This document shows, in pieces, positions 10,279 through 33,490 of a stretch of DNA of 64,000 bases. The DNA lies in NCBI GenBank assembly GCA_963814955.1, contig CAWFEX010000013.1, positions 245,921 through 309,920 of the forward strand, read 5' to 3'. The stretch's first letter is position 1. Every line of letters begins with the position of its first letter. Under the pieces are notes generated by a model. That model had not been told where the DNA came from and searched no databases. It saw nothing but the letters and a program-made list of their open reading frames with translations. The stretch comes from an uncultured Acidobacteriota bacterium. GTDB taxonomy: Bacteria > Acidobacteriota > Vicinamibacteria > Vicinamibacterales > UBA2999. A program made the position numbers and the translations under genes.

Positions 10279-11475
10279 GTGAAGACGATCGGATGCGATA
10301 CTGAGTGCATCATCACCTCGCGAATTCTTCTCGCTCTCATATCGACAACGCTGGCGGCAGGTTGTGTGCGTGCACACGCTGTCGTTTCGCTGGAGGCTTA
10401 CCCGGCGACCTGTCGAGGCCTCGTCGCCGAATCTGGAGCCACCGATCCGATTCGGATGGCGTGGCACGAGCTGGATGATTCGGCCGGTCGCCTGGCGATG
10501 GCCAGGTCGTGCGGCGCCGTTGGGCCGGCCGTATACCTTCCGCCTGTACGGAACGACGGGCTCTCTCAGGATGCAATCGATAAGCTCGTCATCCTGAGTT
10601 GGAACGTCCACGTCGGAGGAGGAGATGTCGCGGCAATTGTCCGGGCCCTCCGCGAGGGAAACCTGACAGGCGGTGAGCCGGTCGGCAATTTCATCGTGCT
10701 GTTGCAAGAGGCATTTCGCGCCGGCACTGCGGTGCCGAATTCGCCGGTGAACGGAGCCTCGATCCCGCGGCGTATCGAAGAGTTTCCTCCCGATGGACTG
10801 CGGCGCGACATCCTGCAAAGTGCGCGCGAGCTGGGCCTCGGCGTCTTCTATGTGCCATCGATGCGCAATGGATCGCACCGGGGGGTGGCCGCCGAGGATC
10901 GCGGCAACGCAATTCTCTCGACGCTCCCCCTCTCGGACCTCACGGGCATCGAGCTGCCGTTCGAGCGCCAGCGTCGCATTGCCGCGTCGGCGACGGTGTC
11001 AGGTGTCGATACGGCCGGCAATCCCTGGCAGCTGCGACTCGTCACCGCACATCTCAACGCGACGGCAAGCATGAAACGCCTGTGGGTCTTTTCCGCGGGC
11101 GTTCGGGAGCGGCAGGCCAGACATCTGGCCGGGGTGCTTGCGCGCGCCGACGTCCCGACGGTCGTCGGCTCTGATTTGAATTCGTGGGCGGGCGGGCCCT
11201 CAGAGCCGGCTTACTCAGAGCTCCGCGCTCATTTTCCCCAGACACCCGCGCTCGGCGGTGAGCCGACATTCCGTGGCGGCAGGATGCTCGACTTCGTGTT
11301 CCTCCGCGTACCGCCAGTCTGGGCGGGACAGCTCCAGACGCTGAGTAGCTTTTTTGGATCCGATCACCGCCCGCTGATCGGGTGGATTCAGTTTCGGCCC
11401 GCTCCCGTTTGCAGCCGCTTGAGCGCGGACTGCACGGCGTCGCGCAGCGAACCCGAATCCTTCGACAACTCCTGA
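10279..11475 (+). CDS. endonuclease/exonuclease/phosphatase (EEP) family lipoprotein
   Basis: Lipobox LAAGC after a GTG start (10279 or 10267; start uncertain). EEP motifs LVILSWNVHVGGG and FFGSDHRPL. Confidence 0.75.
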   Translation: MKTIGCDTECIITSRILLALISTTLAAGCVRAHAVVSLEAYPATCRGLVAESGATDPIRMAWHELDDSAGRLAMARSCGAVGPAVYLPPVRNDGLSQDAIDKLVILSWNVHVGGGDVAAIVRALREGNLTGGEPVGNFIVLLQEAFRAGTAVPNSPVNGASIPRRIEEFPPDGLRRDILQSARELGLGVFYVPSMRNGSHRGVAAEDRGNAILSTLPLSDLTGIELPFERQRRIAASATVSGVDTAGNPWQLRLVTAHLNATASMKRLWVFSAGVRERQARHLAGVLARADVPTVVGSDLNSWAGGPSEPAYSELRAHFPQTPALGGEPTFRGGRMLDFVFLRVPPVWAGQLQTLSSFFGSDHRPLIGWIQFRPAPVCSRLSADCTASRSEPESFDNS

Positions 11476-12962
11476 TCGAGCTTGCGCAGCTCGTCCATCG
11501 CCTGGTCCATGCGGCCGGCGCCTGCGTGCAGCAGGGCCACGTAGTATCGAATCGTGCGGCGCCGCGACTCGTCGTTCCCCGCGTACTCGTTGAACGCCCA
11601 GCCGAGCGTACCAATGTGATCGTCGGGAGGCAGCGCACTGAGCAACGCCTGCCGATCTTTTTCATGACCGCTGAGCGTCGCAAAGTAATACGGACCCCAG
11701 AGCGCCTGAGCCTGTGCCATGCTCAACTTCTGACTCTCCCGCCTCATGGCGTCGGCGACCCGCACTCGCTCGACAACAGATTCCGGCGTGTTGGTGTTGC
11801 CGTATGCGGACCATTGCAGCGTGCGAACGCTATCGACCGCGCGTCCTGCTCGAAGGGCCGTGTCGAACAGTTTCGCCGCTCGAGCGACATCGTCATCCTG
11901 GAAAAGAATCCAGTGGGCGAGCATTGCATTCGCGTAAGGATTCCCCGGATCGATGGCCAGGGCCTCTTCGTACCATTCAGCCGGGTTCAGTTGCCGATTC
12001 CCGTCGCGCCACATCAGGAAACTGGCCCAGCCAGAGTGGGCCAGCAAGTCGGCCCGGCGCGCGCCGGTGGCCGAGGGGAGCGCCGCGTCCACCACGGCGA
12101 GGCCCGGCTTGATCGCTTCGCCAAACGAGGACTTGCCGCCTTCCACGCGGACGTTGCGAATCCAGTCCATCGCGGCGTCTTCCTGTGCCTGTTGAACCGC
12201 TTCTGAAGCCGGGGCCAGTTCTTTCGCTCGCGCCAGCGTGGACAGCGCCTCGACGGATTGGCTGCGCCGACGCTGCGCCGATGCCTCGGCCAACAGAGCT
12301 TCGACCTGGCGCATCTGATCGGACGTCAGCTCCGTCGGCCGGTCGCTGGGGCCCGTTGACGCGGTCGCAGACTCGCCGTCGCCTGCGCGCAGAACGAGGT
12401 AAGCCGCAAGTCCGAGTGCGAGAACGGCCACGAGCGCCGCTGCTGGCCACCAGCGCCGCAGTAGCAACCGCCATGCGGGTTCGCCTTCGATCATGGCTGC
12501 CAGGCGATCGCACAGCCGTTCCGCGTCGTCATGGAACTCCGCGTGATCGAGCGCGGCGAGCTGCCGGTTGCCCAGCGGCGCAAGCGATGCCGGCAAGTCT
12601 TCCTTCTTCGGCATCGACGCGCCCTGGACGAGCACCGGTACAACCGGGATGCTGCGGCTCAGAGCGGTCTCGACCTCCAGACGAACGAAGTCGCCGGGAT
12701 CGTCGAGTCGGCGGGTACCGTCGGCAGCGCGCAGAGACGTCCATCGTGGTCCGATCACGACGAGCATCGCGGCGGTCTGTCGCAGCGAGGCCTGCAATAC
12801 CTCGACGAAGTCGGTGCCCGGGTCGATGGTCTCGATGTCGAGGAACACGCGATCGGCGCCGAACCGCCGGTGCAGGTGGTCGGCGAGCCGGCCGGCGTCA
12901 CCGGATGCGTCCTCCCGCCGGTAGCTCACAAAGATGCGATTTGAAGTGGCGGTCCGCGGCAC
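11388..12962 (-). CDS. TIR domain - single TM - helical-repeat (TPR-like) protein
   Basis: N-terminal TIR_2-type signature RIFVSYRREDASGDAGRLADHL...VFLD...LVVIGPRW...FVRLEVE. TM segment WWPAAALVAVLALGLAAYLVL (12390-12452). Alpha-helical C-terminal region of about 330 aa. The GTG 12962 start is provisional. Confidence 0.75.
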   Translation of the reverse strand: MPRTATSNRIFVSYRREDASGDAGRLADHLHRRFGADRVFLDIETIDPGTDFVEVLQASLRQTAAMLVVIGPRWTSLRAADGTRRLDDPGDFVRLEVETALSRSIPVVPVLVQGASMPKKEDLPASLAPLGNRQLAALDHAEFHDDAERLCDRLAAMIEGEPAWRLLLRRWWPAAALVAVLALGLAAYLVLRAGDGESATASTGPSDRPTELTSDQMRQVEALLAEASAQRRRSQSVEALSTLARAKELAPASEAVQQAQEDAAMDWIRNVRVEGGKSSFGEAIKPGLAVVDAALPSATGARRADLLAHSGWASFLMWRDGNRQLNPAEWYEEALAIDPGNPYANAMLAHWILFQDDDVARAAKLFDTALRAGRAVDSVRTLQWSAYGNTNTPESVVERVRVADAMRRESQKLSMAQAQALWGPYYFATLSGHEKDRQALLSALPPDDHIGTLGWAFNEYAGNDESRRRTIRYYVALLHAGAGRMDQAMDELRKLDQELSKDSGSLRDAVQSALKRLQTGAGRN

Positions 12963-12982
12963 GTGCTCGATGATACGCGGAA

Positions 12983-13063
12983 CCACGAAGGACACGAAGA
13001 TCGCGAAGACACGAGGGTCAGGAATCGGATCCGAGTGATTCGTGACCTTCGTGTCCTTCGTGG
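12983..13063. repeat. perfect 17-bp inverted repeat hairpin (likely terminator of 13073..14104)
   Basis: CCACGAAGGACACGAAG (12983-12999) and CTTCGTGTCCTTCGTGG (13047-13063). It starts 10 nt past the stop of the upstream minus-strand gene. The arm is itself a duplicated ACGAAGGAC word. Confidence 0.7.
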
Positions 13064-13072
13064 TTTCCGGCT

Positions 13073-14104
13073 CTAATTGGTTCGCGTGGCGTCGGTACGT
13101 GGCGTTCCGTTGATGACGCTGTAGACCTGCTCGATGTGCACGGTCCGGTGCGTATCCCATCGCTCGAAACCTTTATATGCATCGAGCGTGAGGGTCTTCT
13201 GAATGTCTGCCAGACTGCGGCCCGCTCCGATTCCTGCGGCGACGCCCTTCGACAATTCCTCGAGGTACTGGAGCGACATCGCGGCGTCCTTCTTCGTTCC
13301 CATCAGCGCGTGTCCGGTCGCGGCGTGATCGAAGTCGAGCGCCATGATCGTGCGCAGTGCGTCGATATATGCGCCGACCGTCGGCGTGATGTTCTGCGGC
13401 AGGCGCTTGACCTGCAGCACGTCGGCGCTGAACACCGTTCGCTCGTCCGGGAAATAGAGCGCGGTGCTGTCGTCGGTGTGCGCGACGCCGAGGGGCACCA
13501 TGATGACGCGCTTGCCGCCGAGCGTCACCGTGTGGCGGTCGCGGAACGTCGTGCTCGGGAGGAACACGTCGTTCACCGAACCGCGAATCAGCTCGGCCGC
13601 ACTGAGGATGCCGTTCCGGTTCTCGTCGAACAGGTCGAAGCGCTCCGCCGTTGCGCCGGTGGCCTCACTGCGCTCGACAACGCCGTTGCGGTTGGCGTCC
13701 ATCTTGACGCCATCAGCCGGTAGTGGCGGGTTCCCTGGAGGAAGTGCCACGCCCGCCCGCATGTTGGCGTGACCGACGAACTCGGCGGTATCCGCAAAGA
13801 CGACGCCTCCGGACGCATGGTCCCAGTCCTTGTGTGTGTAAAGGACGTAGCGGACCGGCACCTTGAAGCGGGTGGCGAACTCCGCCTTGAGCCAGCGGGC
13901 GAAGTCGCGATTGATCGGGTCGGACATGATGATGCCTTCGGGCGTCACCAGGAATACGGTGTAGTGGTTGTCGTTCTGGGCCCGGTACAGCTGGCCCGTA
14001 ATGTTCACGATGCCGCGTGGTGGCGATTTCTGTTGTGCCATGGCGCTCGTCGCGACACCCGACATCACAGTAATAACGAGGATAGAGGTCAGAATCCTTC
14101 TCAT
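13073..14104 (-). CDS. secreted MBL-fold hydrolase carrying an EF-hand pair
   Basis: Signal MRRILTSILVITVMSGVATSAMAQQ. MBL-like motif YTHKDWDHASGG. Two canonical 12-residue Ca-binding loops, DANRNGVVERSE and DENRNGILSAAE. Confidence 0.75.
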   Translation of the reverse strand: MRRILTSILVITVMSGVATSAMAQQKSPPRGIVNITGQLYRAQNDNHYTVFLVTPEGIIMSDPINRDFARWLKAEFATRFKVPVRYVLYTHKDWDHASGGVVFADTAEFVGHANMRAGVALPPGNPPLPADGVKMDANRNGVVERSEATGATAERFDLFDENRNGILSAAELIRGSVNDVFLPSTTFRDRHTVTLGGKRVIMVPLGVAHTDDSTALYFPDERTVFSADVLQVKRLPQNITPTVGAYIDALRTIMALDFDHAATGHALMGTKKDAAMSLQYLEELSKGVAAGIGAGRSLADIQKTLTLDAYKGFERWDTHRTVHIEQVYSVINGTPRTDATRTN

Positions 14105-23885: not shown

Positions 23886-24578
23886 ATGTCGCCGGCCGCG
23901 GGCCTGATTCATCACACCGATGGCATCACACGCTGCTGGTGGCCAGGCGAGGATCACGCGTATCTGCGTTATCACGATGATGAATGGGGGATTCCCGTCG
24001 CCGAGGACCGGCGGCTGTTCGAAAAGATCTGCCTCGAAGGATTCCAGGCGGGGCTGAGCTGGCTGACGATTCTCCGCAAACGTCCGCACTTCCGAAACGC
24101 CTTCGCGGATTTCGATGTCGACCGCGTCGCGCGGTTCAACGCCCGCGACATACGGCGACTGCTCAGCGACGAGAGAATCATCCGTCATCGCGGCAAGATC
24201 GAATCGGCGATCAACAACGCCAGGCGCGCTGCCGCAATCCGCGAGGAGTTCGGATCGCTGGCGGCGTACTTCTGGAGCTGGGAACCAGACCCGCGGTCGC
24301 GCCCGCGGCGCCTGACGCGAAACGCACTCATGCAGCTTGCGCGGACACCGCAATCCATCGCGTTGAGCAAGGACTTGAAGCGGCGGGGTTGGACGTTTGT
24401 GGGACCGACGACGGTTTATGCCTTCATGCAGGCCATGGGTCTGGTGAACGATCATCTGGAAGGCTGCGCGAGCAGGGCCGTCATCGAACAAGCGCGGGCG
24501 GTGTTCCGGCGGCCGTTCACGAATCCCGAATCGCGTCGTGCTGGTCGGCGAGACGCCGCAGAACAGGGGCGACCTTGA
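23886..24578 (+). CDS. tag: DNA-3-methyladenine glycosylase I
   Basis: CWWPGEDHAYLRYHDDEWGIPV...EGFQAGLSWLTILRKR...RGWTFVGPTTVYAFMQAMGLVNDH is colinear with E. coli Tag. ATG 23886 chosen. Confidence 0.85.
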   Translation: MSPAAGLIHHTDGITRCWWPGEDHAYLRYHDDEWGIPVAEDRRLFEKICLEGFQAGLSWLTILRKRPHFRNAFADFDVDRVARFNARDIRRLLSDERIIRHRGKIESAINNARRAAAIREEFGSLAAYFWSWEPDPRSRPRRLTRNALMQLARTPQSIALSKDLKRRGWTFVGPTTVYAFMQAMGLVNDHLEGCASRAVIEQARAVFRRPFTNPESRRAGRRDAAEQGRP

Positions 24579-26487
24579 CAAAAGCATCGACGACAGCTGG
24601 ATCGAAGTGCGTTCCGCTGCCTTTGACGATGAAGGCGACGACGTCATCGTGCTGCATGGCCTCGTGATAAACGCGACGCGAATGGATGGCGTCGTACACA
24701 TCCACGAGCGCAATCAGGCGGCCGGCAATGGGAATCTCGGTGCCGCGTAAGCCCTGCGGGTAGCCGGTCCCGTCCCACTTCTCATGGTGGGTGTAGACGA
24801 TGTCCTTGGCGATGGTCAGCGTGACGTCGTCGCGTATTCCCACTTCGCGTTCTGTCTTGAGAATGACATCTCGCCCGTGGGTCGGGTGCTTGCGCATTTC
24901 CAGCAGCTCGTCCGCGGTGAGCACCCCAGGCTTGTTCAGCAGGCTATCCGGCACGCCCACTTTTCCGATGTCGTGGAGAGGCGCGAGCGTCGAGAGCAGA
25001 TCGATTCGTTCGGGAGTCAAGTAGGCGCTGAATTCGGGACGGGTCGCGAGCTCCTGCGCGAGTACGCGCGTGTATTGCTGCGTTCGCCGTGAATGCCTTC
25101 CCGTTTCGACGTCCCTGATTTCGACGAGCGAGAGAAGTGCCTGAACCATCACCCGCTCCGTCGTGACTTTGTCGCGCCCGGCTCGATCGGCGCGGATTCG
25201 CTCGATCACGACTTGAGCAACGGTCATGAACGCGAGAGCGGAAGAAAGACCGATCGTCGGGAACAGCGGCGACAGGAAGGCGCCGTGTCGCGAGAGCAGC
25301 GCGACAGCCACGGCCCACGCTCCGATCAGGCCGAGAATCGCGCTGACGCCACCCCAGGCGAGGCCAAAGCGGGACACCACCAGGGCGGCGAGCATGCCGA
25401 GCGCCAGTACAGACAACGTCTCGAGGGTCAGCCCGTACTCAGGCCGACGAAGGAAGTCCCGCTGCAGGAGGTTGTCGGCGACCGTGGCCTGGACTTCGAC
25501 ACCGGTAAACACTGTGTCGAGAGGTGTCGATACGACCTCTCGCGTGCCGAGTGCGCTGGTGCCGACAAACACGATCTTGTCCTTGAAGGCATTCGCATGC
25601 GCCTGGCCGTTCAGGACATCGACAGCCGAGACATACGCAAAGGTATTTTTGACGCCTCGGTATCGCAGGAGCAGATTGCTCTTGCCGTCGAGCGGCACAT
25701 GCACGTCGCCGCCTGCGCCGACCTGGTGAGCACTTTCACCTCGGTCCCCACCGTCTTCCGAGATCAACAGCGTCGAGGCGTCCACATTCGCGACGCGCAG
25801 CGCCACGCCGCGCGTTCTCGTTGCTGCTGAGACGGCGGCGAGCGCCAGAGCCGGATAGACGTGGCCCTCGAATTCCACAACGAGCGGAACGCGTCTGAGA
25901 ATGCCATCGACGTCGGGCACGGCGTTCATAAATCCCGAGGCACCCGCGGCCCGTGCGAGGTTCGGCAGGTTGCACACGGAGGCGGACGCCCGGAAAAACG
26001 GATCAGCCGCGTGCTCGTCATCGCCCTGAATGATGGCGAGGCCAAGTGGGTGATGTACGCATTCACGCCGCAATTGGCCGGGATCGTCGAACGTCAGCGC
26101 AAAGCCCAGCACGACGCGACCGGCGTGAAGCGCGTCCGCAAGTATGGCGTCGGGGTCTTCACCCGATTCACCAATCCGGTCCGATTCGGCGAACATGATA
26201 TCGAGCGCGACGATGGACGCGCCGAGATCCCGCAGGTTGCCGATCAACCGTGCGATGAGATCGCGCCGCCAGGGCCATTGGCCGATCGTGGTGAGACTTC
26301 GCTCGTCGACGTCGACGATGACGATTCTGCCATCAGGCGGGTGAGTGCCGGCGGCGCGCACCAGCGTGTCGTAGATGCGCCAGTCCATGCGGGCGAGTGA
26401 CGCCGGGCGGTAGAGACAGAGTGCTGCGACGACGAGCGTCGGCACCAGTCCACACAGGACAACGAGCCGCCGCAGGCCGATTGTCAT
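24517..26487 (-). CDS. CHASE2 sensor - 3 TM - HD-GYP phosphodiesterase
   Basis: N-terminal CHASE2 pattern (IVIVDVDERSL...GQWPWRRD...ALDIMF). C-terminal HDIGKVGVP...HHEKWDGTGYP (HD-GYP). Confidence 0.85.
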   Translation of the reverse strand: MTIGLRRLVVLCGLVPTLVVAALCLYRPASLARMDWRIYDTLVRAAGTHPPDGRIVIVDVDERSLTTIGQWPWRRDLIARLIGNLRDLGASIVALDIMFAESDRIGESGEDPDAILADALHAGRVVLGFALTFDDPGQLRRECVHHPLGLAIIQGDDEHAADPFFRASASVCNLPNLARAAGASGFMNAVPDVDGILRRVPLVVEFEGHVYPALALAAVSAATRTRGVALRVANVDASTLLISEDGGDRGESAHQVGAGGDVHVPLDGKSNLLLRYRGVKNTFAYVSAVDVLNGQAHANAFKDKIVFVGTSALGTREVVSTPLDTVFTGVEVQATVADNLLQRDFLRRPEYGLTLETLSVLALGMLAALVVSRFGLAWGGVSAILGLIGAWAVAVALLSRHGAFLSPLFPTIGLSSALAFMTVAQVVIERIRADRAGRDKVTTERVMVQALLSLVEIRDVETGRHSRRTQQYTRVLAQELATRPEFSAYLTPERIDLLSTLAPLHDIGKVGVPDSLLNKPGVLTADELLEMRKHPTHGRDVILKTEREVGIRDDVTLTIAKDIVYTHHEKWDGTGYPQGLRGTEIPIAGRLIALVDVYDAIHSRRVYHEAMQHDDVVAFIVKGSGTHFDPAVVDAFVKVAPVLRRLADQHDAIRDS

Positions 26488-27122
26488 CTGACGGAGATAT
26501 CGACGCGGCGGTTCCTGGGCTCGAACACGTCGTCTGCCGTCGGGACCAGCAGATCGGACTCGCCGTGCGAAGTCACCTCGATCGCCGACGCGTCGAGGCC
26601 GGCGTCGATCAGAAAGCCGCGGACCATCTCGGCGCGTTTCCGGCCAAGATCGAAGTTTGCGGTAATTGTGCCTGTGGTGTCGGTGTGGCCGATGATCAGG
26701 AGCTCGGGAACAGGATGCTCTTTGATAGCCTGCAGAATGTCGGGGACCATGGAGCGGCTGTCGTCGGTGAGCTCGTCCGACTCGAAACGAAAGTACACCG
26801 TAAACCGTTGCGGCGCTGGCGGGAGAGCCCTCAGGGCGTCTCCGAAGATTCGGCGCACATCCGATTCGCTCAGGCGGGTCGCGGGCGATGGCGCCTCGTT
26901 GGCCGATGCGACTGTCGCTTCGCGCGCCTCGTCCAGATCGGTTGTCCCTGAAGAGTTCGAGACCGCCGCGCGCCCTGACGAGTCGTCTTCACCGTCGGGA
27001 AGCAATACCGTTAGTGTTTGACCGGGGCGCTCGACAAGCTCAATACGCAGCATTGCGCACGCCGACGCGAATCCCGCGCCGGCGAGCGCAACGAGAACAA
27101 CGAGCGGTCGTGCTCCAATCAT
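26484..27122 (-). CDS. OmpA/MotB-like peptidoglycan-binding protein
   Basis: ATGA overlaps at both ends. C-terminal LIIGHTDTTGT...NFDLGRKRAEMV...RNRRVDI motif. Confidence 0.8.
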   Translation of the reverse strand: MIGARPLVVLVALAGAGFASACAMLRIELVERPGQTLTVLLPDGEDDSSGRAAVSNSSGTTDLDEAREATVASANEAPSPATRLSESDVRRIFGDALRALPPAPQRFTVYFRFESDELTDDSRSMVPDILQAIKEHPVPELLIIGHTDTTGTITANFDLGRKRAEMVRGFLIDAGLDASAIEVTSHGESDLLVPTADDVFEPRNRRVDISVR

Positions 27123-27619
27123 TCCGGTACGACACGCAGCGCCAGTGTCGTCCCGCGAACACCGACAATTGCCCCAGGAGTTTCAAGACGGACCGAGTCG
27201 GGCGACAGCTTTGCGATGCGTCCGGACACGTACGCCGCTACGCCGCGAACCACTTTGAGCACGAATCCGAGCTGGCCCGCTGAAGGGGCGTACGCGAAAC
27301 GTTCGAGGGAGACCTCGCTGGCGGGGCCAAGCGACACTCGCGTGTCGTCATTCAGAGTGATCCCGATGCGGCCGTCGGCGCCCGTCCTGACAACGTCGGC
27401 TTCGTACACCGGCTGTCCAACATGAGCAGGGCCGACGTTTCCGGCGCGGACGATGAATACTGAGCCCGAGGCAACCTTGACGCGTCCGGCAGCCAGCGGT
27501 TCAGCGAAGGCTGGCGTCGCCGCGAGCAACATAACGCCGGCGAAAAGCCACGGTACGGCGCGCAGGCGTGCACCGTGGGAACTGCTGCGGCTTCGATGAT
27601 TCATCATGCAACACCCCAC
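27119..27619 (-). CDS. FecR-domain protein
   Basis: Signal peptide, then GRVKVASGSVFIVRAG...G.PVYEADVVRTGADGRIGITLNDDTRVSLGPASEVSL, typical of FecR domains. The start may be 27604-27607. Confidence 0.75.
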   Translation of the reverse strand: MGCCMMNHRSRSSSHGARLRAVPWLFAGVMLLAATPAFAEPLAAGRVKVASGSVFIVRAGNVGPAHVGQPVYEADVVRTGADGRIGITLNDDTRVSLGPASEVSLERFAYAPSAGQLGFVLKVVRGVAAYVSGRIAKLSPDSVRLETPGAIVGVRGTTLALRVVPE

Positions 27620-27796: not shown

Positions 27797-29014
27797 CTAG
27801 AACAAGCGGAGTTGATGTGAACCGTGTGGCTTCCGTGAGACTCGGCTCTTGTCGTCGAAGACGGTGCGCCCCCCGTGCGACCGCGAGGCTGCCCGTTCCC
27901 ACGCGATTGCGGCGTTGACGTCCGACGTCGGGTCGAGCCGCTCCTCGATGGCTCGGGTAAACGCGTCAAGACGTTTCATCCCGTGCAGCTTTTCGGAATG
28001 ACCGAGCTTTGCCGCGTGAAGCGACCGGCGGAGCACCGCGATGGATTGGTCATATACGTCCAGTGGAACAGGAAACGGATGGCCGTCTTTGCCGCCGTGC
28101 GCAAACGAAAACCTCGCCGGGTCATCGAAACGCGACGGCGCACCGTGCACGACTTCCGCCACCAGCGCCAGCGACTGCAGCGTCCGCGGACCAAGTTGTT
28201 CGAGCAGCAGAAACGAGGCGAAATCGCGCAACTCGCGATCGTGAGCGAGTGCCAGCACGGCGCCGAGCCGCTTTTCGTTGACGTCCGACGCGCGGACAGA
28301 GTGCCGCGCCGGCATCGTGAGGCGTCGTACGCTGCGAATCGTCTCGTCCGGATCGCTCCGGGCGATCGTCAGGAGGGCGTCCTGGGCAGTCCGCGCACGC
28401 GAATCCACCAGATTCATGACGGTGCCGACATGTTCTCCGACTATCGCCGAATGCGGATCGGCAGTGAAATCGCGAACCGACGCCGAGTGCCAGTGATAGC
28501 GCCGGGCGAGCCCGCTGTCTCCGTTCATTCCCTGTTGCACGATCGCCCAATCGCCTTCGGACGTAAGGACGAACGAGTGCAGATAGATCTGGAAACCGTC
28601 GGCGACAGCGTTGTTGTCTATGCGGGCGGTCAGGCGGCTGATCCGGACCAGCGAGTCGCCGTCGAGACTGTTTCGATCGGCGAGCGCACGCAGTTCGTGC
28701 GGAGTGTTGCGCGAGTGTTTGCCGCGACCGCCGCAGATGAAGATTCCCAGATCGCTGGCGCGCCGATTGAGTCCCTGCTTCAGCGCTCCCATCACCGACG
28801 TCGTGATGCCCGAGGAATGCCAGTCCATCCCGAGAACCGCTCCCAGCGCCTGAAACCAGAACGGATCGCTGAGCCGGGAGATGAATGCAGCTCGACCATA
28901 GTGATGGACCACACTTTCGGTCACAGCCGTACCGAGCGTCACCATTCGGGTCGCCAGCCACGAAGGGACGCGCCCATAGTGGAGAGGGAGATCCGCGAAA
29001 CCGGATCGAGGCAC
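27797..29014 (-). CDS. DUF763 domain protein
   Basis: GTG start. N-terminus MPRSGFADLPLHYGRVPSWL...FWFQALGAVLGMDWHSSGITTSV is characteristic of DUF763. Confidence 0.7.
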   Translation of the reverse strand: MPRSGFADLPLHYGRVPSWLATRMVTLGTAVTESVVHHYGRAAFISRLSDPFWFQALGAVLGMDWHSSGITTSVMGALKQGLNRRASDLGIFICGGRGKHSRNTPHELRALADRNSLDGDSLVRISRLTARIDNNAVADGFQIYLHSFVLTSEGDWAIVQQGMNGDSGLARRYHWHSASVRDFTADPHSAIVGEHVGTVMNLVDSRARTAQDALLTIARSDPDETIRSVRRLTMPARHSVRASDVNEKRLGAVLALAHDRELRDFASFLLLEQLGPRTLQSLALVAEVVHGAPSRFDDPARFSFAHGGKDGHPFPVPLDVYDQSIAVLRRSLHAAKLGHSEKLHGMKRLDAFTRAIEERLDPTSDVNAAIAWERAASRSHGGRTVFDDKSRVSRKPHGSHQLRLF

Positions 29015-29355
29015 GGTTCATTTTTGCACGCGCAAAGTGTGGGGGCTCACGCGTATCGAACATGGCGTCCAATCTCATCAGCAGATTTGTCGTGCAAAGC
29101 GATTGACCGGTGCCGACACATCAGCTAACGTCGCGGACGCGAACACATAACAGCGATCTGGCGACGGCTGATTGTCCATCTCAGTCCTCTCCTCGGCGTC
29201 GATCGCGCGCCCGCTGGCAGACAGTAGGGCACGTCGGATTCTCGGCACCTTGCCCCTCATCCAGTTATGGCAGTGTGCTGTCCGACGTGCTGACGGCAGG
29301 ACCTGTGTGTTGCGGACGCGGCTGGATGCTCGCCGTGGAAGGACCAATAGTCACC

Positions 29356-31002
29356 ATGCCTGATGTGTTTCTCAGCTACGCCCGGGAGGATCGCGAGCGT
29401 GCTCGGGTTCTGGCGGGCGCGCTCGAAACACAGGGCTGGTCCGTCTGGTGGGATCGCAAGATCATCGCAGGCGACACATTCGACGAAACAATCGAGGAGC
29501 AGCTCGCGACCGCCAAGAGCGTCGTCGTGCTCTGGTCGGAACAGTCGATCGGGTCCGAGTGGGTGAGAAACGAGGCAGCGGCTGCGTCCGAACGAGACGT
29601 CCTCGTTCCGGTCCTTCTGGACAACGTCAAACAGCCGCTCGAATTCCGGCGCAGACAAGCGGCCGACCTGACGCGCTGGGCTGGCGATCCGAGGGATGTT
29701 GAATTCCAAGGGCTCGTCGAAGGCATCGCCGCAAAGACGCGAACGCCGTTGCGGCCTCGAACGACGCCGCCTGTCATTGAACGCGCATGGCATCGTGTGC
29801 GGTTGAAGCCGGCACTTGCCGCGCTGGTCCTCATCGCGGGCGCCGCCGGGTACCTGATTTGGACGGTCGTGGGCCGCGATGGCGCCGTTGTAGTCGATGA
29901 ACCCGGCGTCGATCGACTGAAAGTCGTCAACGCGGCAACGTCCGATGGCCGCGATCGCGACGCCCCATTCATGCTCACTTTCGGTACGGTGCTGAAAATA
30001 AGTCTGGAACCGGACCAGGAGTACTTCCTGCGGCTTTCGGAAGGTGCGGAAGCGGTCAAGGTGGTGCTCGACATGAGACGCGTCGACTTACGAAACAGCA
30101 ACCTTCAGAGCACACTCTCTGGCCTCAACCAGGACGGGACGGTGGCAGAAGAGCGTCTGATCGATTTCAACGAGATAGACGTTGGCGCCAGAAAGACAGC
30201 CTCGTGGTCGACGAGACGAACGACGCCTGTGGGTTTCAAGCTGCTGAACGGCAACGTGCCGGCGGATTTCTGGCTCAGCGTGCGCCGGGAGCCGGCGCCG
30301 CAGTTCGTGCCTTTCTTCGGCGACGTCGTGCCGCAGCGGTTGCCGCTCGGCGAAGAGGCATCCGGAGTGCTCGAGCGCAATGAGGACGCCTATTACCTGG
30401 TACCGCTCGGGCAGGGCGAGATTCAGGTCGTCGTCGATTTCGCCAATGCGGAGAGGCGGAAGACGAATATTCAAGGATCGGTCGCGCTCCTCGATGTGGA
30501 CGGTGGAAATTCCAGGGAGATTGTCCGGTTCAATGAAATCGAGGTCTCTTCTCGCAAGATCGGAACCTTCGTGACTCGAACACCTGGTTCCATCATCGTG
30601 AACGTTCAGAACGACGACGACCCTGTCAGATTCGACTTGAGGCTCATTGCAGCCCCAGCCGGGAATACGGACATCAAACCGATCCTGCGGCGTTCGAGGG
30701 ACATCAGCGGCAAATGGGTCGCGGAGGCGACCAGGAGCGGGCAGCGCCCGTTCCAAATCGAGCTCGAGCTCGACGTCATGAATGACCGGCTGTTCGGCAC
30801 CGTGCACTACCCATCCGGCGACGCGGGCATCCAGGACGGCGAGATCGAAGGGGATCGGATCCGTTTCCGGACCGTGCACACGCCTCAATTCGACGCAGCA
30901 CCAGCCGAAATCAGATTCGACGGCCAGATTACCGGCGAGACGCTGCAATTGATTCTTCAGGATTCCACGGGGGTCGCACGCGTCACCGCCCGCCGCCGCT
31001 GA
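29356..31002 (+). CDS. TIR domain - single TM - duplicated beta-rich module protein
   Basis: ATG 29356. TIR_2-type MPDVFLSYAREDRERARVLAGALETQGWSVWWD...VVVLWSEQSIGSEWVRNEA. TM LKPALAALVLIAGAAGYLIWTVV (29803-29871). Two homologous modules of about 105 aa (29965-30285, 30334-30645) and a terminal domain of about 95 aa. Confidence 0.8.
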   Translation: MPDVFLSYAREDRERARVLAGALETQGWSVWWDRKIIAGDTFDETIEEQLATAKSVVVLWSEQSIGSEWVRNEAAAASERDVLVPVLLDNVKQPLEFRRRQAADLTRWAGDPRDVEFQGLVEGIAAKTRTPLRPRTTPPVIERAWHRVRLKPALAALVLIAGAAGYLIWTVVGRDGAVVVDEPGVDRLKVVNAATSDGRDRDAPFMLTFGTVLKISLEPDQEYFLRLSEGAEAVKVVLDMRRVDLRNSNLQSTLSGLNQDGTVAEERLIDFNEIDVGARKTASWSTRRTTPVGFKLLNGNVPADFWLSVRREPAPQFVPFFGDVVPQRLPLGEEASGVLERNEDAYYLVPLGQGEIQVVVDFANAERRKTNIQGSVALLDVDGGNSREIVRFNEIEVSSRKIGTFVTRTPGSIIVNVQNDDDPVRFDLRLIAAPAGNTDIKPILRRSRDISGKWVAEATRSGQRPFQIELELDVMNDRLFGTVHYPSGDAGIQDGEIEGDRIRFRTVHTPQFDAAPAEIRFDGQITGETLQLILQDSTGVARVTARRR

Positions 31003-31873: not shown

Positions 31874-33490
31874 CTAGTCTGCAGGGGCAGGTAAACACTG
31901 CCATGCGCGAAACGAGCCCGTAAGGAGCGGTTTCCATACAACCGTCCGGCCGACGCTCTCTTGCAAGTGCATGCTGAGGATTTCCAGACGACCCGGTTCA
32001 CTGATGACGAGCACCGACGGATCGTCACAGATTGCCGACGGGAATGCCGACAGCCCGGACGCTTGAAGAAACGCAAGGAACTGTGGGCTCTGGTTGTTCC
32101 GGCTCAACCGAATCGTGAGCAATCGAACTTCAGGCTGGTGAAACGGTCTCCACCAGTGTTCTTCCGGAAACGTATCCCGGTGAATCACGACAAGGGAAGG
32201 GTTCAGGGCGGCGAGTGCGGCGCCATCGGCGTCTACCTGAAGGCTGTGACGATGGTTGGCGGCCATGGCCGCGAACACGGTTCGCGCCTGATATCCACAC
32301 AGGACGAGCGTCACGACAAGGACGAGCGATGCTGATTTCTTGCTCAGGTGTTCGGAACGCATGGTGGCCAGGACAACGCACACGAAACAGGCAATCATCG
32401 GTGCCAGCAGTCGAAACGGAAGGCTTTTGAAACCAACCTGCACGGCCAGGCAAAAAACGAGAAACGACAGGGCCATGGCCAGTGTCACGCCCGAATCGTG
32501 TCGACGCGACCATAGACTGACGATCAGGAGAAGTCCGACCAAGGCGGGCCAGACCTCATTCAAGCGTTCGGATACGTTTGCCGCGTCGAGGATCCACAGC
32601 CGCTGGATTGCGGCCGTCACATAATCGAGTGGTGTCAGCCGCGCCACGGTCGACTCATAAAAATCCCGAACGGGTTTCACGCTGAAACGGTCCGGATTCA
32701 CGCCCCACGCCTGTTCCAGCATCAGCCAATCGTCGGCAGTCCATCCCACCGCACGCCTGGCCCCGCCAATGTTTACCTCGCTCGGCAGCACCGATTGCCA
32801 GTTCCAATCGAACAGCGCCGTGACGAGGTCGTTCAGTTCGCGATAAGCGTCCCATTCCGGCCGCATCTTGTAGAGAGCGATATCGGCAAGATGAAGTACT
32901 GCGAAGAGACAAAGGGATGCGACGAGCAGCGCGCCCGCTGCCGCGATTCCACGCCGTCGCGCCTGCATGGCGCGCGGCAACAGGCACATGCTGACCGTGA
33001 GCGCGCCTGCCATGGCGCCGCCGGATCGCAATAGCAGGCCGAGAACCAGCAGTGCTGCTGCCATGAGCAGGACCATCCGGCGAGTTGGAGCCTCACTTTG
33101 AAGCTCAGACCAGGCGAGTGCGACCGCAGCCCCTCCGGCTATCGTGGCGCTGATGGTGTATTGCACGCTGCCGACCAGCGGCAGCATCGCCGCGGTTGCC
33201 GTTGCCGCCGCCGAGAGACGAAACGTTCTGGAAGACGACGAACCCCAGACCAGCGTTACGAACACGGCCGCACCCCACACGAGTGCTGCAGTCACTGTGA
33301 TGTCCCACGCATAGGCCGCAGGCCAGACCTGACGGACCCCGACGAGGAGCCAGCCGAGGATTGCGTTTGGCAGCAGTGCAAACCCGGTGGGCGGCTGACC
33401 GGGGATACGGGTTCCTTCCAGGACCGCACGAATTGTTGCGTCGTCGTTGGTGTCGTACGCGGGCGGAATCCACAGCCACAGAGCCAGCAC
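31874..33490 (-). CDS. polytopic membrane protein with C-terminal soluble domain, unknown function
   Basis: 538-aa ORF (GTG start) with about 10 hydrophobic segments. No motif recognised. Confidence 0.55.
   Translation of the reverse strand: MLALWLWIPPAYDTNDDATIRAVLEGTRIPGQPPTGFALLPNAILGWLLVGVRQVWPAAYAWDITVTAALVWGAAVFVTLVWGSSSSRTFRLSAAATATAAMLPLVGSVQYTISATIAGGAAVALAWSELQSEAPTRRMVLLMAAALLVLGLLLRSGGAMAGALTVSMCLLPRAMQARRRGIAAAGALLVASLCLFAVLHLADIALYKMRPEWDAYRELNDLVTALFDWNWQSVLPSEVNIGGARRAVGWTADDWLMLEQAWGVNPDRFSVKPVRDFYESTVARLTPLDYVTAAIQRLWILDAANVSERLNEVWPALVGLLLIVSLWSRRHDSGVTLAMALSFLVFCLAVQVGFKSLPFRLLAPMIACFVCVVLATMRSEHLSKKSASLVLVVTLVLCGYQARTVFAAMAANHRHSLQVDADGAALAALNPSLVVIHRDTFPEEHWWRPFHQPEVRLLTIRLSRNNQSPQFLAFLQASGLSAFPSAICDDPSVLVISEPGRLEILSMHLQESVGRTVVWKPLLTGSFRAWQCLPAPAD

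Follow-up and report, generated by a model that had tools for sequence, protein, structure and literature searches.

The window analyzed here, 64,000 nucleotides of a contig from an uncultured Acidobacteriota bacterium, carries on its forward strand a gene at 29356..31002 (stop codon included) that encodes a 548-aa protein (P0001) with an N-terminal TIR domain, a single predicted transmembrane (TM) helix and an all-β C-terminal region. With confidence slightly above even, we read this protein as a stand-alone single-pass transmembrane receptor with an NADase-type TIR output. The strongest argument for this reading comes from the paired β-sandwiches, D1 and D2, that follow the helix. The same module stands behind a single TM helix in receptor Ser/Thr kinases, and a module common to receptor kinases and TIR proteins points to the TIR protein being a receptor and the TIR its output.

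The gene model is drawn from the open reading frame (ORF), its translation, the Pfam match and an alignment of homologues. The open frame at 29110-31002 (+) is the sole long frame in the region, and the ATG at 29356 yields the 548-aa protein, which begins with MPDVFLSYARED. In alignment A1, which holds 38 homologous sequences with the query counted, the start column at 29356 is shared by 30 rows, while five rows start one residue later, one starts three residues later and two are longer; this agreement gives the 29356 start good support. A second ATG lies ten codons upstream, at 29326, and would account for the 558-aa length of the database record P0002, which is 100% identical to the 548-aa protein.

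An enzyme-type TIR domain

The cytoplasmic TIR domain is assigned to residues 1–125 (29356..29730) from its PF13676 match and its fold matches. Pfam TIR_2 (PF13676) covers residues 4–113 with an E value of 5.3e-25 and 88.7 bits against a cut-off of 28, which passes the curated threshold, and a Pfam scan of the 548-aa protein returned no family besides TIR_2. The AlphaFold2 model of the region has a predicted local distance difference test (pLDDT) score of about 90. It superposes on the TIR domains of Hydra TRR-2 (4w8g, the top fold match, Z 17.4), SPARTA TIR-APAZ (8ifl, Z 16.4), SARM1 (9mw2, Z 15.8) and AbTir (7uxu, Z 14.1) over 120–125 aa with a root-mean-square deviation (rmsd) of 2.1–2.3 Å, and on this measure the domain has the TIR fold. 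A sequence search of solved structures placed the AbTir TIR (7uwg, 8g83) on top with E values of 3e-5 to 7e-5 and also returned PdTIR, TcpB and 7uxr_A, an entry deposited as 'TIR domain protein' that we take to be BtTir. Sequence likeness to the AbTir-type structures is limited to residues 3–76.

Codons W69 to E73 (WVRNE; 29560..29574) encode the αC tryptophan and the putative catalytic glutamate, as judged from the AbTir alignment and from invariance. In the HMMER alignment W69 and E73 pair with the tryptophan and glutamate of AbTir 'WTNYE' and G39 pairs with the glycine of the BB-loop 'GDS', which makes the three residues the counterparts of AbTir W204, E208 and G174, and all three are invariant in the 38 A1 sequences. 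SARM1 E642 occupies the position equivalent to AbTir E208. The available text of the AbTir study reports that the E208A and G174A variants are inactive, that W204 is required for cyclization of ADP-ribose (ADPR) and that activity depends on self-association (10.1101/2022.05.07.491051). By its sequence, the TIR is of the enzyme type and probably of the cyclizing kind, with catalysis as a prediction. A two-copy complex prediction of residues 1–135, run with A1, scored 0.00 against a mark of 0.42, which speaks neither for nor against self-association.

Conservation within A1 is uneven along the protein, with a mean pairwise identity of 71.5% in the TIR, 27–28% in the linker and TM helix, and 49–50% in D1 and D2. 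The Box-1 consensus PDVFISY fits 'group 14' of Toshchakov and Neuwald, which the accessible part of their paper describes as the largest prokaryotic TIR group, little studied and without a structure (PMC7075850). Matches of the TIR to PADLOC models are weak (PDC-S66 1.2e-11, SAVED-TIR 1.3e-10 and ThsB models), and those to the NCBIfam retron-TIR and ThcB4 models lie far under their cut-offs. Across NCBIfam and PADLOC there were only such sub-threshold TIR matches, with nothing for the ectodomain or for the divergent DUF763 gene next door.

Membrane helix and predicted topology

The TIR domain is joined to the membrane by an Arg/Pro-rich linker (residues 126–151; 29731..29808) that is modeled with low confidence (pLDDT < 50 at residues 136–150), has an A1 identity of 27% and ends in RAWHRVRLK, a positive-inside flank. 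The single TM helix that follows (residues 152–175; 29809..29880) is seen both in the Kyte-Doolittle profile, which reaches 2.22 at residues 154–172 (open-frame residues 237–255) directly past RAWHRVRLK, and in the AlphaFold2 model built from the 38-row alignment (mean pLDDT 83.7), where the helix at 152–175 gives way to the all-β C-terminal region. Right after the helix comes GRDGAVVVDEPG. The helix is flanked on its N-side by strongly basic sequence (RPRTTPPVIERAWHRVRLK) and on its C-side by sequence that is net acidic. These flanks, the export leaders of small D3 proteins and the placement of D1–D2 behind leaders or TM helices (both described below) together point to an N-in, C-out protein, and by modeling and analogy we predict a type-II single-pass inner-membrane protein.

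Much of this layout had been proposed in an earlier, sequence-only reading of the window, and it stands. The TIR with the glutamate of SEWVRNEA, the RAWHRVRLK stretch with a TM segment and GRDGAVVVDEPG behind it, and the β-rich C-terminal region, now resolved in the model into D1, D2 and D3, were all recovered. That reading had also allowed that the TIR might lack catalytic residues on structural alignment; the glutamate, the tryptophan and the BB-loop glycine are all present and invariant.

A tandem-sandwich and barrel ectodomain

D1 (residues 199–315; 29950..30300) is a β-sandwich predicted by AlphaFold2 with a pLDDT of about 90–96 and supported by Foldseek matches. D2 (residues 316–435; 30301..30660) is an internal duplicate of D1, with 28% identity over 112 aa (E 5e-13) and the common motifs (S/T)N(L/I)Q and FNEI(D/E)V..RK. 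A Foldseek search with the pair returned the tandem collagen-binding domain of ColG (5iku) first, with an E value of 3e-9 and 13% identity, and then the SIDT1/2 ectodomains, CUB pairs and the DeCLIC N-terminal domains. As modeled, D1–D2 is a pair of jelly-roll sandwiches in tandem, of the PPC/CUB kind. The PPC family itself (PF04151) gave no Pfam match in the 548-aa protein at E <= 0.01. In a protein language-model atlas the neighbors of the ectodomain are PPC clusters (0.90–0.91) and nameless viral clusters (0.92–0.93), which serve as leads only.

D3 (residues 445–548; 30688..30999), defined from AlphaFold2 and fold matches and present in the closest homologues only, is predicted to be an eight-stranded up-and-down β-barrel. 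It is carried by 10 of the 38 A1 rows, the query included, and the other 28 stop after D2 or end in unrelated sequence (P0080). Folded alone with 14 homologues, it reached a pLDDT of 93.5, and VIA-align matched it to the Cap15 barrel (7n34; Z 14.8, rmsd 1.7 Å, 96 aa), to 1pby (Z 13.3) and to avidins (Z about 12). De novo designed barrels match D3 as well as Cap15 does, and identities are only 9–16%; the modeled fold is a generic one, of the small-ligand-binding type. The best Pfam match of D3 has an E value of 0.04, and neither the D1–D2 module nor the D3 barrel is represented by a Pfam model.

Genomes of the same class also hold a D3 family of secreted proteins of ~105 aa (L098–L110) with the consensus ADVxGKWTAEV...LTGTVSG..GD..I.DG...GD...F. 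Among 400 class genomes the D3 homologues comprise nine small proteins with an N-terminal hydrophobic leader, three TIR–TM–D3 proteins whose TIR is of another subtype (L094–L096) and one fusion to a PGAP1-like hydrolase (L093).

The D1–D2 module on other head domains

A profile of D1–D2, run against 1.84 billion cluster representatives, found 231 at E <= 1e-3, and their N-termini were classed from the 150 representatives listed. A short N-terminus with a hydrophobic leader precedes the module in 38 of these 150 and a short N-terminus with no leader detected in 27; another 31 begin inside the module and are probably fragments, and 54 have at least 90 aa ahead of it. A Pfam scan of 48 of the long-N-terminus representatives identified heads of the TIR_2 family in 13 (both TIR subtypes), VWA in 13, Pkinase in five, Peptidase_C14 (caspase) in four and an ECF sigma factor in one, and left 12 without a family. 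Precomputed annotation places TIR_2 on five more representatives (P0100, P0017, P0071, P0112 and P0113).

The way in which the module is attached differs with the head. In 11 of the 13 TIR forms and four of the five kinase forms, head and module are separated by a TM helix. Most VWA forms and two of the four caspase forms have an N-terminal leader instead, and leaders are also found on the stand-alone forms. From these sequences, D1–D2 behaves as a swappable extracytoplasmic binding module; across the membrane it has been wired to no fewer than two kinds of cytoplasmic output, the Ser/Thr kinase and the TIR.

The TIR clade and its distribution

At least 616 stretches of species genomes matched patterns drawn from the TIR domain, and among those listed 582 encode relatives; the clade statistics that follow rest on the best 80 TIR loci. 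By record title these 80 come from Proteobacteria, Acidobacteriota, Verrucomicrobiota, Binatia, Desulfobacterota, Cyanobacteria, Bacteroidota, Chloroflexota and others, with a TIR identity to the query of 51–89% and the signature 'PDVFxSYA...GWSVWWD...SEWVRNEA'. A TM helix follows 143–204 aa past the TIR start in 65 loci, and the other 15 have none at the threshold used. The C-terminal regions vary and are mostly without a Pfam family. Those that could be named are TPR (eight loci), PDZ (three), Lcl_C (two), CarboxypepD_reg (two), FGE-sulfatase (two, one of them also with NACHT), YARHG (one), WD40 (one), PP-binding (one) and a weak SnoaL_3 match under its cut-off (one).

When the ORFs lying up to 3.5 kb from each of the 80 TIR genes were clustered into families, no conserved neighbor gene emerged: no family occurs in more than 7 of the 80 loci, the commonest being amidohydrolase and NMT1-like. 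Five loci from other phyla (L015, L034, L069, L086 and L088) have a homologous same-strand gene upstream of the TIR–TM gene within 3.5 kb; the one scanned, in L015, encodes a TPR-S / MAP3K_TRAF_bd protein and resembles the BcTir/BcTpr layout. At a single locus in an Acidobacteriota metagenome-assembled genome (MAG; L054:3648-7025), a 44%-identical TIR–TM homologue begins 7 nt after a STAS-domain gene, which is itself preceded by a response-regulator–SpoIIE–HATPase_c_2 gene, and the homologue is thus part of a partner-switching string.

Ten TIR_2 ORFs of the source genome score above the cut-off. Six of these have an N-terminal TIR, one TM helix and a C-terminal region; one has a TIR followed by five TM helices, one has a polytopic membrane domain followed by a TIR, and two are soluble. 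The window holds another of the TIR–TM genes at 11388..13160 (-), identified by Pfam and by a hydrophobic stretch of 2.35. It encodes a second TIR subtype (IFVSYRRED...), followed by one TM helix and ~330 aa of helical C-terminal sequence. The sequence-only reading had already pointed to this second TIR–TM gene with a different C-terminal region and had argued from the two for a family of receptor-like TIR–TM proteins as opposed to a one-off fusion. The wider counts bear this out, with 6 of the genome's 10 TIR_2 genes and 65 of the 80 clade loci sharing the layout and more than 100 metagenome proteins sharing the ectodomain.

Among 30 related genomes TIR_2 has no match in 17 and between 1 and 13 matches in the other 13 (13 in G088, 12 in G353 and 10 in G567), and both extremes are seen inside the same genus. 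Genes of the TPR-S (BcTpr) type occur in 9 of 31 related genomes, all nine of them TIR-positive, and in none of the 17 TIR-negative genomes; these counts come from kin genomes that are not independent and are a lead, not a test. The sole strong TPR-S gene of the source genome (C13:408200-408529) lies ~131 kb from the TIR–TM gene. It belongs to an island of conflict-system-type genes outside the window (L147; G000:C13:397000-413000) that encode a 405-aa CHAT–TIR fusion, a zinc-ribbon M48 peptidase, a 531-aa PGAP1-like α/β hydrolase and a TPR-S protein of 416 aa.

The D1–D2 ectodomain is also present in a Gemmatimonadaceae MAG and in the Acidobacteriota MAG mentioned above (L025 and L054), at 43–44% identity. 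A scan of metagenome contigs with A2, the ectodomain alignment, found only two short loci (L111 and L112). Metagenomes of soil, rhizosphere and roots from eight studies contain near-identical DNA, and one of them may be the source sample.

Proposed mechanism and alternatives

Toll-like receptors (TLRs) are activated by dimerization or clustering, and we borrow this model for the protein described here. The outer module would bind an extracytoplasmic ligand, plausibly a polymer or glycan at the sandwiches and a small molecule at the barrel. Binding would cluster or re-orient the receptors and bring their TIR domains into a head-to-tail assembly that forms a composite active site. NAD+ cleavage would thereby be switched on, leading to NAD+ depletion or to a signal of the cyclic ADPR (cADPR) type, and no adjacent partner gene would be needed.

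Several observations weigh against this receptor reading. Scaffold TIRs fit the TIR model as well as enzymes do (MAL Z 16.1, MyD88 Z 15.2). The TM helix and the topology come from a hydropathy window, AlphaFold2 and analogy. The caspase and VWA forms of D1–D2 are probably exported as a whole, so that the module there is uncoupled from any output across the membrane, and the fusion of D3 to a PGAP1-like hydrolase (L093) suggests that D3 may not always be extracytoplasmic. D1–D2 was not found in the other 400 sampled genomes of the order, searched with the A2 profile, nor in the other 400 class genomes, searched with the ectodomain protein. A degraded copy in a genome of the same genus (L118; L012 has the same arrangement) retains only the counterpart of 29355-29792 joined to that of 30441-30621, plus 97 bp of leader; nothing is left of the TM helix, D1 or D3, and D2 is halved. 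This patchy ectodomain and the degraded copy mark the TIR gene as accessory, dispensable and able to decay.

The receptor reading has a special case, an anti-phage or abortive-infection sensor, in which the ectodomain would respond to adsorption or injection by a phage or to a damaged envelope, and the TIR would kill or arrest the cell through NAD+ depletion. We regard this as a possibility to be held with low confidence. The weak matches to defense-TIR models in PADLOC and NCBIfam fit it, as do the absence of the ectodomain from the other 400 order genomes searched, the decayed same-genus copy, the bimodal TIR_2 counts (none in 17 of 30 relatives, 1 to 13 in 13) and the island of CHAT–TIR, PGAP1-like and TPR-S genes elsewhere in the genome. 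In addition, the available text of a survey in E. coli describes single-gene TIR systems, one with a TM segment, that protect against phages (PMC11350192). However, the neighborhood in the window is not a defense island. The gene stands amid signaling and metabolic genes that encode a CHASE histidine kinase, CHASE2-HD, OmpA, FecR, DUF763, TonB, P450, MatE transporter, aminotransferase, GGDEF-EAL and Kdp proteins, and no genes of phages or mobile elements were seen next to it. The TIR is also unusually conserved across phyla, at 55–70% identity, unlike a domain caught in an arms race.

The output of the receptor could instead be physiological, with the TIR making a cADPR-isomer messenger as the counterpart of the Ser/Thr kinases that carry the same ectodomain. 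This ordinary signaling receptor is a tentative suggestion that we place on the unlikely side. The placement of D1–D2 behind a TM helix on four of five Ser/Thr kinases and its fusion to an ECF sigma factor speak for it, as do the signaling genes around the gene, the high conservation of the TIR (71.5% in A1) and the invariance of the αC tryptophan, a residue tied to cyclic products in the accessible part of the AbTir work (10.1101/2022.05.07.491051). On the other side, the gene is dispensable and patchy, and none of the known receptors for TIR products turned up in the genome: SIR2_2 has no match, and the STALD profile has none either, though its control was likewise silent.

A non-enzymatic role is unlikely. 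Here clustered TIRs would act as a scaffold that recruits other TIR proteins, such as the CHAT–TIR fusion, or TPR-S, much as TLRs recruit adaptors. The 10 TIR_2 genes of the genome are consistent with such recruitment, as are the distribution of TIR_2 (absent in 17 of 30 relatives, 2 to 13 matches in nine others), the confinement of TPR-S to TIR-positive genomes (9 of 9, against 0 of 17 TIR-negative ones) and the fold matches to MAL and MyD88 (Z 15–16). BcTir offers a precedent, being described in the available text as catalytically inactive with a TPR partner that is the NADase (10.1101/2023.05.26.542521). Yet the glutamate, the αC tryptophan and the BB-loop glycine are all invariant here, whereas the same text gives BcTir a lysine at the glutamate position (10.1101/2023.05.26.542521). 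Moreover, the nearest TPR-S gene is ~131 kb away and close to another TIR gene, and the co-occurrence counts come from kin genomes and are not independent.

It is improbable, though worth stating, that the genome's six TIR–TM receptors, no two of which share an outer domain, converge on one cytoplasmic pathway through TIR–TIR contacts or a shared cADPR-type signal. That pathway would consist of CHAT–TIR, the PGAP1-like hydrolase and TPR-S and would amount to a TLR-like pattern-recognition network. The idea arises because TIR genes are all-or-none and often multi-copy in the 31 related genomes and because TPR-S is confined to those that are TIR-positive.

Genomic neighborhood and control region

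The TIR gene is flanked by one divergent and one convergent gene. The divergent one, at 27797..29014 (-), encodes DUF763 (PF05559, E 4e-127), as the sequence-only reading had stated, and shares with the TIR gene an intergenic region of 341 bp (29015..29355), characterized by its GC content, conservation and an inverted repeat. The lower GC content ascribed to this spacer in that reading was also confirmed, at 0.58–0.59 compared with 0.61–0.67 in windows of the DUF763 gene and 0.62–0.65 at the start of the TIR gene.

The further proposal of a conserved, functional pairing with DUF763 did not survive. Although the genes are divergent and share a lower-GC spacer of 341 bp, a functional pair acting through a common control region is very improbable, given that DUF763 occurs in 0 of the 80 TIR-clade loci of other genomes, that none of three relatives' DUF763 loci has a TIR within ~9–10 kb and that the degraded copy has another upstream gene. 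A search of 110 loci matched only the two window copies. A literature search on DUF763 turned up one paper (PMC554113). DUF763 itself was found in only 4 of 30 relatives, and in G567 (same genus, DUF763 81% identical), G007 and G387 no TIR, FecR, OmpA or TonB homologue lies within ~9–10 kb on either side of it. The degraded copy (L012/L118) keeps part of the leader next to a different upstream neighbor; in L012 (105-5979) the copy is directly preceded by two large ORFs, of 640 and 1311 aa, neither of which has a Pfam family. The adjacency of the TIR and DUF763 genes is accidental, and DUF763 is a neighbor and not a partner.

Within the spacer, the leader segment 29208-29300 is 77% conserved in the degraded same-genus copy, and a perfect 10-nt inverted repeat (29229-29238 / 29281-29290) has its right arm inside a fully conserved 20-nt block. 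RNA-library contigs, nine short pieces from four runs (three studies) that lie on the gene and its leader, one of them covering 29153-29299, are a weak hint that the TIR gene is expressed, although they may come from contaminating DNA. An Rfam search of 28950-29420 gave no match at E <= 1, a sigma-70 promoter scan of the intergenic region found 0 sites, and terminator-like sites there are no commoner than in shuffled sequence.

Beyond the DUF763 gene, three tightly packed genes at 24517-27619 (-) encode a membrane sensor of the CHASE2-HD (HD_5) type, a protein with an OmpA domain and one with a FecR domain; the ends of these genes overlap by 4 nt, which suggests that they form one operon. On the other flank, just past the convergent TonB-C gene, 31874-33490 (-) encodes a polytopic membrane protein of 538 aa that matches neither Pfam nor NCBIfam.

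Comparison with known systems

Bacterial TIR domains are known as cytoplasmic anti-phage NADase effectors or as secreted virulence factors. A search of the full-text literature, with subscription journals outside its coverage, found no published description of bacterial N-terminal TIR–TM–ectodomain receptors. According to the available text of a 2024 survey in E. coli, bacterial TIR systems seem to lack TLR features such as transmembrane domains (PMC11350192). Newly added by the present analysis are the ectodomain of tandem sandwiches and barrel, the reuse of its module on kinases, caspases, VWA proteins and a sigma factor, and the all-or-none, multi-copy TIR pattern in a soil lineage.

Thoeris, in which a ThsB-type TIR gene adjoins a ThsA gene (SIR2 or Macro with a SLOG/STALD sensor), was considered as a candidate and rejected: the ThsB_TIR profile gives only 22.4 bits against a cut-off of 21.2, the neighbors are DUF763 and TonB with no ThsA, and SIR2_2 has 0 matches in the genome. 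The NAD+ nucleosidases AbTir and BtTir (7uwg, 7uxu, 8g83 and 7uxr) share with the query TIR the αC tryptophan, the catalytic glutamate and the BB-loop glycine. AbTir is a soluble protein whose C-terminal TIR is preceded by a coiled coil at the N-terminus, whereas the TIR studied here comes first in the chain and is tethered to a TM helix and an ectodomain of 370 aa. In the anti-phage BcTir/BcTpr system the TIR and TPR-S genes are together in one operon, according to the accessible part of that study (10.1101/2023.05.26.542521), while in the source genome they are ~131 kb apart and the glutamate is kept.

The outer domains have their own parallels. The tandem domains of ColG, PPC (PF04151) and CUB proteins have a jelly-roll fold like that predicted for D1–D2, although the PPC profile does not match and identity is 13%. 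Cap15, avidin and calycin barrels resemble D3 in fold (7n34, Z 14.8); the Cap15 barrel is cytoplasmic, whereas D3 homologues mostly have export leaders. The closest parallel in layout is given by the receptor Ser/Thr kinases P0127, P0201 and P0229, which carry the same D1–D2 behind one TM helix and have a kinase, not a TIR, as output.

The TIR clade presents a widespread layout of an inner TIR, one TM helix and a swappable predicted outer sensor. If the TIR is switched on from outside, these proteins would be a new bacterial class of transmembrane signaling or immunity receptor, convergent with the Toll-like receptors, and would offer a tractable system for the control of TIR activation across a membrane. 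Toll-like and IL-1 receptors are single-pass proteins with a cytoplasmic TIR and an outer ligand-binding domain, and this inside/outside layout is common to them and the protein described here. In Toll-like receptors, however, a leucine-rich repeat (LRR) ectodomain is followed by the TM helix and a C-terminal TIR, while the order here is reversed (type II), no LRR or Ig match is found and the TIR has enzyme-type residues. The resemblance is best read as a convergent layout and not as membership in the Toll-like receptor family.

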